In this document: positions 2,625 through 5,741 of the stretch, piece after piece | Numbering within the stretch: position 1 is the first letter of the stretch | Layout: every line of letters starts with the position of its first letter | From: Escherichia coli | Lineage (GTDB): Bacteria > Pseudomonadota > Gammaproteobacteria > Enterobacterales > Enterobacteriaceae | DNA length: 64,000 nucleotides | Reading direction: 5' to 3' (one strand) | NCBI RefSeq assembly: GCF_024223415.1 | Contig: NZ_CP100500.1 | Made by a program: the position numbers and the translations under genes | Notes under the pieces: generated by a model | Databases searched by the model: none | The model's input: the letters and a program-made list of their open reading frames with translations, nothing else | What the model was told of the DNA's origin: nothing

Positions 2625-3176
2625 ATGACTCAAAACTATGAACTGATTGTGAAAGGGATCCGCAATTTTGAGAATAAAGTTACGGTAACTTTAGCGTTAC
2701 GGGACAAAAAACGCTTTGACGGTGAAATTTTTGACCTGGACATCTCGCTGGACCGTGTTGAAGGTGCCGCGCTGGAGTTTTATGAGTCAGCAGCCAGAAG
2801 GAGCATCAGACAGGTCTTCCTGGATGTTGTTGCCGGGTTATGTGAAGGGGATGAGCAGTCGCCGGAAAAGCGCCCCGTAATTTTAGAGGCGCAGAATGTG
2901 TGGATAACCTACAAAGGAAAGCTACCGGGAAGAATTACTGGTTCTCTGAAGACGCCACCGACGGCATTGCGGTCAGAAAAAGATGATATTGAATCGCCCA
3001 TTGAAAAACTGGAGGGCAGCGTAGCTGATCTGAATAAAAAATTGTCGGTGCTGATCCCTTCTGAAGATGAAAAAAAACGCCGCGATGAGCAGTTTGCGGC
3101 GTTTTACGATTATTGCATTGAAGTTACTCGCAGGAATTTTGTGAAGATTTTTGAGGAGGGTAAATCTCTTCAGTAA
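2625..3176 (+). CDS. Hypothetical protein (moron inserted between holin and endolysin)
   Basis: 183-aa ORF starting 4 nt after the holin stop with SD GGGGAGAG; no family recognised; AT-richer than flanking lysis genes. Confidence 0.6.
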   Translation: MTQNYELIVKGIRNFENKVTVTLALRDKKRFDGEIFDLDISLDRVEGAALEFYESAARRSIRQVFLDVVAGLCEGDEQSPEKRPVILEAQNVWITYKGKLPGRITGSLKTPPTALRSEKDDIESPIEKLEGSVADLNKKLSVLIPSEDEKKRRDEQFAAFYDYCIEVTRRNFVKIFEEGKSLQ

Positions 3177-3384
3177 GCTTAATGGCGGACGCTGCAATTA
3201 ATTCAGGAAGGTCCGCAAGGTCATCTGTCAGTGGATATGATGAAAAATCGGCGGCAGTTCTGTTAAGAATCGCTTTAACTAATTCCTTTTCCTTCTCCGG
3301 CAACAAGTTGATTAGAGCTACGACTGCTTGCCTGAGTGCGATTAAATCAGCAAAAGTTTGTTTTGGTAGATTTGTGTAATCCAT
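3124..3384 (-). CDS. Hypothetical small acidic protein, convergent with and 3'-overlapping the previous ORF
   Basis: 86 aa from ATG at 3384 (MDYTNLPKQTF...) with SD GAGGTG 3 nt upstream; the six-frame ORF extends to 3507 but that part overlaps the endolysin start and lacks an RBS. Confidence 0.5.
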   Translation of the reverse strand: MDYTNLPKQTFADLIALRQAVVALINLLPEKEKELVKAILNRTAADFSSYPLTDDLADLPELIAASAIKLTEEIYPPQKSSQNSCE

Positions 3385-3497
3385 AGTCACCTCTGTGTTT
3401 ATCAGATTGACATCCTCCTCCCGCCAGTGCCCATCACTGGTGAGGTAAGATTTAACATATCCAGGGTTCAGAAACCGATAAATCCTGATAAATATCC

Positions 3498-4031
3498 ATG
3501 AGCGCAAAAATCAAATACGGCCTGTCAGCTGCTGTTCTGGCGCTGATTGCTGCAGGCGCGTCTGCTCCTCAAATACTTGACCAGTTTCTGGATGAAAAAG
3601 AGGGTAACCACACTACGGCATACCGCGATGGTTCCGGTATATGGACCATCTGTCGTGGTGCCACAATGGTGGATGGTAAGCCCGTCATACCGGGAATGAA
3701 GCTGTCGAAGGAAAAATGCGACCAGGTTAACGCTATTGAACGTGATAAGGCGCTGGCATGGGTGGAGCGCAATATTAAAGTACCACTGACCGAACCACAA
3801 AAAGCGGGTATAGCGTCATTCTGTCCCTATAACATTGGCCCCGGTAAGTGTTTCCCGTCGACGTTTTATAAGCGGCTTAATGCCGGTGATCGTAAAGGTG
3901 CCTGTGAGTCGATTCGCTGGTGGATTAAGGACGGTGGGCGTGATTGCCGCACACGTTCAAATAACTGCTACGGACAGGTTATTCGTCGTGACCAGGAAGC
4001 AGCACTTGTGTGCTGGGATATCGACAGATGA
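3498..4031 (+). CDS. R: SAR endolysin (phage lysozyme, R21-like)
   Basis: 177 aa; N-terminal signal-anchor LSAAVLALIAAGASAP followed by lysozyme-like motifs (EGNHTTAYRDGSGIWTICRG); paired with a pinholin. Confidence 0.9.
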   Translation: MSAKIKYGLSAAVLALIAAGASAPQILDQFLDEKEGNHTTAYRDGSGIWTICRGATMVDGKPVIPGMKLSKEKCDQVNAIERDKALAWVERNIKVPLTEPQKAGIASFCPYNIGPGKCFPSTFYKRLNAGDRKGACESIRWWIKDGGRDCRTRSNNCYGQVIRRDQEAALVCWDIDR

Positions 4032-4125
4032 GCAGAATATTTTGCTGAAAAATGACGTTGGCCAACGCGGACGGATAACACGATATTCGACATAAATGAA
4101 TTTAAATAGTGAATAAAAGCAGAAA

Positions 4126-4154
4126 CCCCGATTGTTGGTCGCAATCGGGGTTTT
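4126..4154 (+). terminator. Rho-independent terminator immediately downstream of R
   Basis: 9-bp stem ccccgattg/caatcgggg, 7-nt loop, then TTTT. Confidence 0.6.
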
Positions 4155-4216
4155 GTGTTTCTGGCAGTAAGTTATGGGAGGCTGCCTTGATTAATTTTAG
4201 CGGAGGAGACTGGATT

Positions 4217-4354
4217 GTGGAAGCTCTGAAATTGCTCGAAAGAAGTCCGGTTCTGAGAAGAATGTTTTATATAGCTCTTATAGTTATCGGAGCATTCGCC
4301 GTTGCGAAATCACTTCCGGGAATAGCTGAAATCATAAAGGCGCTGAATGCATAA
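4217..4354 (+). CDS. Small membrane protein (45 aa, GTG start), part of the insertion between R and Rz
   Basis: SD GGAGGA 9 nt upstream of GTG; one predicted TM helix MFYIALIVIGAFAVA; alternative ATG start at 4262. Confidence 0.35.
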   Translation: MEALKLLERSPVLRRMFYIALIVIGAFAVAKSLPGIAEIIKALNA

Positions 4355-4520
4355 AGAATACCTGGCTGAGGCTGACAAACAGGTCTCTGAATTGAAAGCT
4401 CCGGTAACCGATGACATCAGCGGAGCGGTGGCTTTTGCCATTAAGTGGGTGGCAGTCGGCGTTGCTATATCACCGGTACTGTATGGGCTGGCAAAGCTGG
4501 TTATTGCGTTGAAATCATAA
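4347..4520 (+). CDS. Small membrane protein (57 aa), start overlaps the stop of the previous small ORF
   Basis: MHKEYLAEADKQVSELK... with C-terminal TM helix AFAIKWVAVGVAISPVLYGLAKLVIAL; below the 60-aa cutoff of the ORF track. Confidence 0.4.
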   Translation: MHKEYLAEADKQVSELKAPVTDDISGAVAFAIKWVAVGVAISPVLYGLAKLVIALKS

Positions 4521-4583
4521 CTGTTACGGCCAGGTGATTCGTCGTGACCAGGAAAGTGCATTAGCCTGTTGGGGGATAGATCA

Positions 4584-5051
4584 GTGAGCAGAGTCGCCGC
4601 GATTATTTATGCTCTGGTTATCTGCATCATCGTCTGCCTGTCGTGGGCGGTCAATCATTACCGTGATAACGCCATCGCCTACAAAGAACAGCGTGATAAA
4701 AAAGTCAGTGAGCTGAAGCAGGCGACCGCCACCATTACTGACATGCAGCAACGCCAGCGTGCTGCTGATGTACTCGATGCTAAATACACGAAGGAGTTGG
4801 CTGATGCGAAAGCTGAAAATGATGCTCTTCGGCGCAAGCTTGATAATGGTGGTCGGGTGCTCGTCAAAGGAAAATGCCCTGTGCCATCCTCAGCCGAAAC
4901 CTCCAGCGCCTCCGGCATGGGCAATGATGCCACCGTCGAACTCTCTCCAGTTGCTGGACGAAACGTTCTCGGTGTCCGGGACGGAATTATCCGCGACCAA
5001 ACAGCACTGAGAACGCTTCAGGAATACATCAGGACGCAATGCCTTCGATGA
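4584..5051 (+). CDS. Rz: Rz i-spanin
   Basis: GTG start, [40 protein letters not shown]... closely matches lambda Rz as recalled; N-terminal TM anchor. Confidence 0.85.
4804..5010 (+). CDS. Rz1: Rz1 o-spanin lipoprotein, embedded in the +1 frame of Rz
   Basis: [21 protein letters not shown]... with lipobox VVGC and proline-rich mature part; entirely inside Rz. Confidence 0.8.
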
Positions 5052-5191
5052 TAGCGATAATTTTACTCATCATCCTTCACATCTGGCTGTGTAGACAGGG
5101 TGGTGATCACTTCTGGAGTGAATCCAGATTAAACATCTCATTGCTGATGCTTGAAGTTGAGCATCTGGCGCGCGGTAAGGGGCTGCGTTGA
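5048..5191 (+). CDS. Possible small membrane protein (47 aa), ATG overlaps the Rz stop
   Basis: ATGA overlap with Rz stop; N-terminal hydrophobic [15 protein letters not shown]; followed by a terminator at 5226-5248. No homology support. Confidence 0.3.
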
Positions 5192-5225
5192 AATAAGAGC
5201 CAGTCATTAAAAATACCTGGATTTA

Positions 5226-5248
5226 GCCTCGCATTCGCGGGGCTTTTT
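5226..5248 (+). terminator. Rho-independent terminator
   Basis: Hairpin gcctcgc-attc-gcggggc followed by TTTTT. Confidence 0.5.
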
Positions 5249-5546
5249 ATTGCCATTACAAAAGCCACTCCCTACAGAGTGGCTTTGATAATGGCTTATA
5301 CCCTACACGGGATAACTTAACTGATATCCCTTTTAACGGATAAAGGTATTCAAGCCTGACACATCATGCGCTGTATCGTCGCCGTATTCCCGTATTAACA
5401 GAGACCGTAGCCCGACGGGGAACTCCTTCTGCGCGAGTGTGCGGGAATAATCAAAAACGATGCACACCGGGTTTTACTGTGCTGACAGACGCAGGGTTAC
5501 CCTCATAGTCGCTTTTCCGGTGCGATGGTGGAAGAAACCGGGATGT

Positions 5547-5741
5547 TTATTCATCATCTCTTTGGATTGATGTATATGCTCTCTTTTCTGACGTTAGTCT
5601 CCGACGGCAGGCTTCAATGACCCAGGCTGAGAAATTCCCGGACCCTTTTTGCTCAAGAGCGATGTTAATTTGTTCAATCATTTGGTTAGGAAAGCGGATG
5701 TTGCGGGTTGTTGTTCTGCGGGTTCTGTTCTTCGTTGACAT
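5547..5741 (-). CDS. YlcI/YnfO-family small protein (DUF3950, ribbon-helix-helix-like)
   Basis: 64 aa with motif NIRFP...NFSAWV..AC; paralogous to the ORF at 63486-63683; this family sits before the terminase genes in DLP12 and Qin. Confidence 0.7.
   Translation of the reverse strand: MSTKNRTRRTTTRNIRFPNQMIEQINIALEQKGSGNFSAWVIEACRRRLTSEKRAYTSIQRDDE

Follow-up and report, generated by a model that had tools for sequence, protein, structure and literature searches.

A small gene of 47 codons lies directly behind the spanin gene Rz among the late genes of an enterobacterial lambdoid (pro)phage, within a 64,000-nt stretch of Escherichia coli DNA (contig NZ_CP100500.1, assembly GCF_024223415.1; hereafter the window). 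It runs on the plus strand from ATG 5048 to TGA 5189-5191, as an earlier annotation made from the letters of the window (the original prediction) had proposed, and comparison with divergent relatives establishes it as a real and conserved protein-coding gene. Tentatively, we favour the reading that it encodes a late, translationally coupled, inner-membrane peptide of 44-47 residues that may serve as a dispensable accessory or modulating factor at envelope disruption. As annotation this is ordinary, re-discovering an open reading frame (ORF) that is already called in most records, where it is annotated as "hypothetical protein". The present analysis corrects the likely start codon, giving 47 rather than 50 amino acids (aa), defines the conserved residues, namely the hydrophobic helix, W23 and ARGKGLR, and flags a conserved structured element downstream, here termed H.

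An open frame of 47 codons is unremarkable by chance, with a probability of about 0.10 from the simple arithmetic of (61/64)^47, so that the case for the gene rests on its conservation in relatives. Copies of the E. coli type are more than 94% identical, which makes their openness uninformative, and divergent relatives were sought instead. Klebsiella phage ST16-OXA48phi5.2 carries a 45-codon ORF (MLILFILLSIWLCRLSEKPGWFKVSHIISMLALEDEHPARGKGLR) two bases past the stop codon of its Rz gene. Searches from this Klebsiella protein, combined with a profile search of 1.84 billion cluster representatives, delimited a family of 28 representatives at E values up to 1e-3, derived from Klebsiella, Raoultella, Kluyvera and metagenomes. 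These relatives are 40-60% identical to the peptide of the window and, fusions and fragments excluded, 44-47 residues long, all length differences being whole codons. W23 and G45 are invariant, and the IWLCR at the end of the helix, S31 and the C-terminal A41-R42-x-K44-G45-L46-R47 nearly so. The original prediction had hinged on conservation of the frame in relatives, and conservation across genera is what we found.

Openness of the frame was assessed in viral contigs. A first sample, ranked by protein identity, was biased towards intact ORFs and was excluded from the selection tests. Resampling by a DNA motif located 3' of the stop codon, GATAAGAGCC-N2-5-CATTACA, avoids this gene-call bias; two motif families in the resample were chance matches without the gene. 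Among 64 distinct 138-nt haplotypes upstream of the motif, 58 were open in the annotated frame, compared to 0-13 of the 64 in each of the other five frames. The haplotypes that were not open represented chance motif matches, an insertion sequence (IS)-type insertion and a few truncations.

Ratios of nonsynonymous to synonymous substitution (dN/dS, omega) were estimated by the Nei-Gojobori method, either pairwise between clades or from the substitutions along a minimum spanning tree of 70 haplotypes. Over the whole gene, the annotated frame gave 0.55-0.58 in pairwise comparisons and 0.60 on the tree (p=2e-5), compared to pairwise values of 0.63-1.9 in the two shifted frames (0.8-1.06 between clades and within the divergent set) and tree values of 0.76 and 0.91. 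Constraint was strongest in the hydrophobic segment, represented by the first 13 aligned codons, with pairwise values of 0.09-0.20 and a tree value of 0.25 (p=4e-9), and with omega of about 1 or more when the same segment was read in the shifted frames. The 11 C-terminal codons gave 0.4-0.9 pairwise and 0.62 on the tree (p=0.04), and the middle 20 codons 0.87-1.06 and 0.91, respectively. By these estimates, it is chiefly the N-terminal helix and the C-terminal motif that are under selection, with the middle behaving as a freely evolving linker. An unexpected surplus of "synonymous" changes that appeared when the middle region was read in frame +2 (omega 0.59, p=0.001) was discarded as a composition artefact, this frame being interrupted by stop codons in most haplotypes.

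At the nucleotide level, conservation is higher over the last third of the gene and the first 10 nt past its stop codon (5150-5201) than over the 5' part, with proportions of synonymous differences (pS) of 0.24-0.26 versus 0.33-0.69. RNAalifold proposed a structure inside the ORF, in which an invariant ATCTCA, encoding Ile-Ser, pairs with TGAGAT at the stop codon and encloses two inner helices. This structure was not adopted, because its pairs are invariant and show no covariation and because the single-sequence fold was no better than that of shuffled sequences (z = -1.45). One pair of the ATCTCA/TGAGAT helix is broken in the window, where position 5192 is an A.

The ATG of the small gene (5048-5050) overlaps the TGA of Rz (5049-5051) in the sequence cgATGAta, as had been stated. 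Missed at that time was a second in-frame ATG at 5039, three codons further 5', which gives a 50-aa form and is where database annotations of the gene begin. The equivalent of ATG 5048 is the start codon in all divergent relatives, several of which carry an in-frame stop codon immediately upstream, so that the longer form is impossible there. Conservation of ATG 5039 in the E. coli-type copies can be explained by Rz, since this ATG lies within the Rz codons CAA-TGC. Thus, as judged from sequence comparison, the 47-aa start at 5048 is better supported than the 50-aa database start; phages of the E. coli type could use ATG 5039.

Read from the sequence, the plus-strand ATGA at 5048-5051 is a translational coupling signal. 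This overlap with Rz occurs in nearly all E. coli-type junction haplotypes, apart from a few single-base variants such as ccttcaATGATA in locus L096 and its relatives. In the other types, the ATG follows the upstream stop codon by 0-7 nt or overlaps it (TAATG, ATGA), with the exception of the L086/L095 type, in which an Rz 3' remnant of about 35 nt separates the o-spanin stop codon from the ATG. These other types often have a GAGG or GGTGA 5-8 nt before the ATG, within the end of the preceding gene. The sole Shine-Dalgarno (SD)-like element in the window is AGGA at 5031-5034, 13 nt upstream of ATG 5048, which makes reinitiation at the ATGA the likeliest route of translation.

Homology breakpoints at 5016-5019 (query positions 117-120) place the left edge of the co-inherited module at about 5016, approximately 32 nt before the ATG. 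This edge falls within the last 11 codons of Rz, the last approximately 35 nt of which move with the small gene as a mosaic unit. On the right, breakpoints lie at about 5213, at about 5250 past the terminator described below, or later. A scan for the sigma-70 consensus detected no promoter-like site on the plus strand near the module, and a module that begins only about 32 nt before the ATG leaves no room for a promoter of its own.

Downstream, the stop codon is directly followed by the motif (G/A)ATAAGAGCC (5192-5201, plus strand), which is found at this place in divergent relatives; the 17-nt post-stop pattern also matched a few chance sites without the gene. The original prediction of a terminator less than 35 bp away is borne out: a putative intrinsic terminator, T (5225-5251, plus strand), begins 33 nt past the stop codon of the small gene and consists of a stem-loop (5225-5244) of eight pairs, six of them G-C, followed by TTTTATT. 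Its predicted fold has -14.7 kcal/mol (z = -2.9), the G+C-rich stem-loop with its T-run has the form of an intrinsic terminator, and T is annotated as a terminator in the records of phages Ayreon and epsilon34. T is present in 65 of 130 distinct haplotypes, and a hairpin of one or the other class stands 12-35 nt past the stop codon in 122 of the 130: T alone in 39, H in 57 (in one of these further away, at +62) and, like the window, T with H behind it in 26.

H occupies 5252-5295 of the plus strand (core 5254-5293) and comprises CATTACA, a 10-bp stem, a 6-nt loop and then TTGATAATG. The window copy folds with -26.8 kcal/mol (z = -8.1). In its general form H spans approximately 37-40 nt, with CATTACA, a stem of 9-10 bp, a loop of 3-6 nt and (T/C)GATAATG, and pairing extends to the outer CATTA and TAATG. 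In a comparison of 21 distinct versions, 98.7% of the cells were paired and 8 of the 15 pairs had changed on both sides; none of 500 shuffles was as good, and slid controls paired at 34-48%. In 184 distinct loci amounting to 1.4 Mb, every one of the 173 H copies is on the late strand, 3' of the small gene; loci with copies include L085, L088-L095 and L218-L220. Relatives near the detection limit (L218-L220) retain the arrangement of gene plus H. Further copies stand directly 3' of the stop codons of accessory genes between the lysis and terminase genes. Possible roles of H are as a hairpin of the RNase III type for processing or stabilisation, or as a linker at cassette boundaries. An Rfam scan returned no family matching H or the small-gene region. 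Two weaker hits were set aside as chance or trivial: the small RNA (sRNA) STnc560 (MgrR) scored 18.7 bits against a threshold of 55 and maps to the unrelated ydeI/ydeE region in Salmonella, and a minus-strand match to mir-458 merely reflects the long H hairpin. H appears to be uncatalogued and is a more unusual by-product of this analysis than the small gene itself.

The position of the gene was compared across 16 diverse phage contexts. It always lies on the late strand, 3' of the holin and endolysin genes and 5' of terminase. The cassettes that precede it are unrelated, with holins of the families Phage_holin_2, 3_1, 3_3, 3_7 and 8, endolysins of the PF00959 lysozyme, GH19 and CHAP types, and spanins assigned to PF03245, DUF2514 and phrog_13, 214, 1026, 1275, 2536 and 5672. 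Throughout these 16 contexts the gene is contiguous with the lysis genes (holin, endolysin and spanin) of the late strand, and in about 12 of them the immediate upstream gene encodes a spanin. In the larger set of loci, the upstream ORF belongs to an Rz-type cluster in 176 of 201, and all those examined are tightly joined to the upstream stop codon. Nowhere else in the 1.4 Mb of related loci was the small gene found. Adjoining the gene in some loci is a family of soluble proteins of 60-67 aa, phrog_9518, located upstream in L217 (2822-3004) and downstream in L111 (777-980). One database protein, P0106, is a deletion fusion that joins the N-terminus of the small peptide to the phrog_9518 protein.

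The family is widespread among temperate phages. In megablast comparisons with phage records, the region is 95-99% identical in many temperate phages of Escherichia, Shigella and Salmonella. The match of the 50-aa form to phrog_11822 ("unknown function") has an E value of 8.6e-38, residues 1-50 aligning with positions 1-50 of the 50-position profile. Sf6 gene 65, epsilon34 gp67 ("similar to Sf6 gene 65") and mEp460 gp58 belong to the same protein family and occupy the same post-Rz position, with no sequence difference; it is only in the start codon that we depart from the annotation of this family, 5048 (47 aa) being backed by the cross-genus comparison versus 5039 (50 aa) in the databases. 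The 153-nt ORF is recorded as "hypothetical protein" in Ayreon, mEp460 and epsilon34, among others, and stands directly after Rz/Rz1 on the same strand in the records of Ayreon, mEp460, epsilon34 and Sf6. Model phages with the gene are Sf6, HK620, epsilon34 and CUS-3. At least 1000 contigs encode the identical protein, which UniRef names, for example, "Bacteriophage protein (Gene 65)". The locus is present in 1954 of 5426 complete E. coli genomes (36%), O157:H7 and CFT073 among them, and the E. coli matches fall under "hypothetical protein | lysis protein" in all matches listed. Sequence searches of Pfam, NCBIfam, PADLOC and the Protein Data Bank (PDB) with the peptide returned no similarity, and a literature search on the peptide, its locus tags, gene 65 and lysis cassettes retrieved no functional or experimental study.

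In the peptide, a hydrophobic N-terminal helix is followed by a variable middle and by a conserved C-terminus of basic character, ARGKGLR in the window and EH-x-AR-(G/S)-KGLR across the family. The N-terminus is as hydrophobic as had been claimed, with a Kyte-Doolittle mean of 2.95 for residues 1-15. An AlphaFold2 model built on an alignment of 38 sequences predicts a helix at residues 2-17, a short turn and a second helix at residues 22-43, with a predicted local distance difference test score (pLDDT) of 67. R16 is the first charged residue of the N-terminal segment, and the tail is basic overall; by the positive-inside rule this suggests an orientation with the N-terminus out and the C-terminus in. 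A membrane-spanning state, and with it the designation as a membrane peptide, is plausible on these predictions. Comparison with established classes placed the peptide outside the holins and antiholins, the spanin lipoproteins and the morons. With its hydrophobic run of 13-15 residues and no match to a holin in Pfam, NCBIfam or PHROG, it could not be assigned to the holins or antiholins. Reading IWLC as the signature of an o-spanin or u-spanin lipoprotein or of a signal peptide was rejected, as there is no lipobox of the form [LVI][ASTVI][GAS]C and Leu occupies position -1; moreover, the Cys of I-W-L-C is not invariant, relatives having Y, F, W or D. The gene does not qualify as a moron: a terminator is present, but the module, starting about 32 nt before the ATG, has no plus-strand promoter-like site nearby. 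As for a type I toxin-antitoxin system, the scan, which covered the sigma-70 consensus, revealed no suitable promoter on either strand at the locus.

Taken together, these features lead to the following tentative picture. With no promoter of its own in the module, the small gene would be reached by late, Q-dependent transcription, at the distal end of the lysis transcript. Its translation would be coupled to that of the preceding gene, by termination and reinitiation at the Rz ATGA in the window and elsewhere from the SD-like GAGG or GGTGA embedded in the 3' end of the upstream gene, after which the transcript would meet a hairpin, T and/or H, 12-35 nt past the stop codon. The product would have a hydrophobic anchor helix of about residues 1-15 and a cytoplasm-facing, net-basic tail, would enter the inner membrane late in infection, and might there affect the timing of lysis or the behaviour of spanin or holin; it would not be a core lysis protein. 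Of the original prediction, the reality of the gene, its start at 5048, its tight joining to the upstream gene, the hairpin or terminator on its 3' side and the conservation of its frame have stood. The further suggestion of an additional lysis-cassette component draws on position, the gene being the last on the late strand after the holin, endolysin and spanin genes, and we infer such a role with corresponding caution.

Several observations weigh against this picture. The gene is optional: of 159 phage records matching the Rz 3'-end query, 47 also match the core of the small gene. In DLP12 of E. coli K-12, where we examined the locus, borD directly follows rzpD without the small ORF, so that ribosome profiling (Ribo-seq) resources for K-12 are of no use at that locus. 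To our knowledge, phages lambda, 21 and P22 lyse without such a gene. In about 4 of the 16 contexts another small gene intervenes between spanin and the gene: L217, L089 and L090 have a small non-spanin gene as the upstream neighbour (phrog_9518, 3909 and 8494, respectively), and in L111 this neighbour is an ORF with a phrog_717 fragment that is not a recognised spanin and runs off the end of the locus. H is shared with unrelated downstream accessory genes, which suggests one more accessory cassette. Overall constraint is weak and the middle 20 codons evolve neutrally. Finally, a hydrophobic run of 13-15 residues is short for a membrane-spanning helix, the Kyte-Doolittle value over a 19-residue window stays below the usual threshold of 1.6 in the Klebsiella and Kluyvera types, and a pLDDT of 67 denotes modest confidence in the structure model.

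Some of these points feed the principal alternative, which we consider somewhat less probable than a modulating factor at envelope disruption: that the gene is an accessory cassette unrelated to lysis, the first of several small, optional late-strand genes in the variable region between lysis and packaging genes, each bounded by H at its 3' end. The peptide would then serve another late function, for instance modulation of the host membrane or stress response or a block to superinfection in the lytic cycle, and its adjacency to Rz would merely mark the start of the region. The recurrence of the same H element after the stop codons of unrelated accessory genes, the sporadic presence of the gene among phages of this Rz type, the small non-spanin genes that sometimes separate it from the spanin, the deletion fusion with one such neighbour in P0106 and the neutral evolution of the protein middle all speak for this account. 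It fits less well with a gene that is almost always the first in the region, as the Rz-type upstream ORF in 176 of 201 loci and the tight joining wherever this was examined indicate, and that never occurs elsewhere in the related loci. Lack of an own promoter also sets the gene apart from classical morons, and small late-expressed membrane peptides encoded beside lysis genes are typically lysis regulators.

A minor alternative, which we regard as improbable, holds that translation itself matters and not the peptide. Ribosomes would be kept on the distal lysis mRNA up to 12-35 nt before the hairpin, which could prevent Rho-dependent polarity or nuclease attack or influence the formation of the T and H hairpins. 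Consistent with this are the tight coupling to the upstream stop codon in nearly all contexts examined, the fixed short distance from stop codon to hairpin, the reduced synonymous divergence of the 3' third together with the conserved post-stop motif, and the predicted, non-covarying ATCTCA/TGAGAT pairing around the stop codon. However, the last of these is broken in the window at 5192, and the fold inside the ORF does not surpass shuffled sequences. The strong purifying selection on the amino acids of the hydrophobic segment (omega 0.09-0.25), the invariant W23 and the C-terminal motif point to the peptide rather than to its translation. Least probable of all, and likewise minor, is a spurious ORF within a non-coding 3' untranslated region or RNA element that is conserved in nucleotides or has recently spread: the chance expectation of about 10% for such a frame, the uninformative near-identity of the E. 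coli copies, an omega of 0.6 overall and about 1 in the middle, and the fact that some natural copies are frameshifted, truncated or IS-disrupted would allow for it, but relatives from other genera with 40-60% protein identity retain the frame, the length and the start codon, substitutions in the first 13 aligned codons show a strong synonymous bias (p=4e-9), the other five frames are closed in most haplotypes, and no Rfam family accounts for the region, the STnc560 match being a sub-threshold chance hit.

If the peptide does modulate envelope disruption, its nearest functional parallels would be the small membrane regulators of lysis, such as the antiholins S107 of lambda and LysC of P2, proteins of the T4 RI type and the "releasin" gp25 of Mu. 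Like these, it is small, combines a hydrophobic helix with a charged tail, has its gene on the late strand, inside the lysis cluster or at its border, and, in a comparison drawn from general knowledge, is dispensable for the core holin-endolysin-spanin pathway. It differs from them in that it resembles no holin or antiholin family in Pfam, NCBIfam or PHROG and in that its gene follows the spanins instead of standing beside the holin. As the gene accompanies many unrelated types of holin and endolysin, no specific partner is evident. Type I toxin peptides of the Hok, Ldr and TisB class are generally known to have a similar layout, with about 45-50 aa, an N-terminal hydrophobic helix and a polar, charged C-terminus; however, the small gene lies in a phage late operon, its product has no sequence similarity to them, and the sigma-70 consensus scan found no promoter for it or for an antisense RNA. 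The morons of lambdoid phages include bor, lom and HK97 gp15. Like morons, the small gene is optional, is distributed as a mosaic within a variable region and has a terminator or hairpin directly on its 3' side; unlike them, it belongs to a module without a promoter, the left edge of which lies about 32 nt before the ATG. Because it is translationally joined to the preceding late gene on the same strand, it would be expected to be expressed late and, unlike morons, not from the prophage. For lambdoid-phage morons the work to consult is reportedly that of Juhala et al. (2000).

The gene is very common, yet we found no functional study of it, and it could easily be tested in existing model phages. 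Should the peptide prove to modulate lysis, a component would be added to one of the best-studied phage pathways. A bolder extension, which we think unlikely, would combine the small gene and H into an unrecognised conserved terminal module of the lysis cassettes of enterobacterial temperate phages. On this view the peptide would rank as a fifth inner-membrane factor associated with lysis, tuning the action of spanin or holin or the timing of lysis. The late transcript would be punctuated, at the transitions between lysis, accessory and packaging genes, by H elements that act as RNase III-type sites for processing or 3' stabilisation, or as linkers at cassette boundaries.

The surroundings of the gene resemble the layout of DLP12 in E. 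coli K-12. A porin gene on the minus strand (75-1178) resembles nmpC of DLP12. Three transfer RNA (tRNA) genes, Met(CAT), Arg(TCT) and Thr(TGT), lie at 1777-2009, just upstream of the lysis genes. The latter start with an S21-like pinholin (2405-2620) and continue with a lysozyme R of the signal-anchor-release (SAR) type (3498-4031, PF00959). Between the two lie a 183-aa ORF on the plus strand (2625-3176) and a 127-aa ORF on the minus strand (3124-3507). Rz, the i-spanin of 155 aa, extends on the plus strand from GTG 4584 to the TGA at 5049-5051 and matches PF03245 (E=9.6e-29) and phrog_13 (E=1.1e-72). Embedded in its +1 frame is Rz1, the o-spanin lipoprotein (4804-5010, plus strand), the start of which is uncertain (4804 or 4816); the corresponding ORF (4759-5010) has a lipobox, its equivalent is annotated as Rz1 in epsilon34, and it ends before the small gene starts. 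Beyond the small gene, a DUF3950/YlcI-like gene follows on the minus strand (5547-5741), and lambda-type terminase genes from 6064.

R and Rz of the window are split by an insertion of approximately 550 bp (4032-4583); with the material inserted at 2625-3507, the holin and endolysin genes are separated as well. At full length, the insertion between R and Rz was absent from all phage records and complete E. coli genomes searched. It is flanked by a 76-nt direct repeat of 76% identity (copies at 3961-4036 and 4517-4592), which corresponds to the place where the 3' end of R meets the start of Rz; a vestigial ATGA and an Rz stub of six codons survive in the first copy. Within the insertion itself are a terminator-like hairpin that is bidirectional (4122-4154) and two small ORFs, each with a hydrophobic segment at the C-terminal end (4109-4354 and 4347-4520); the second of these ORFs matches phrog_1115.

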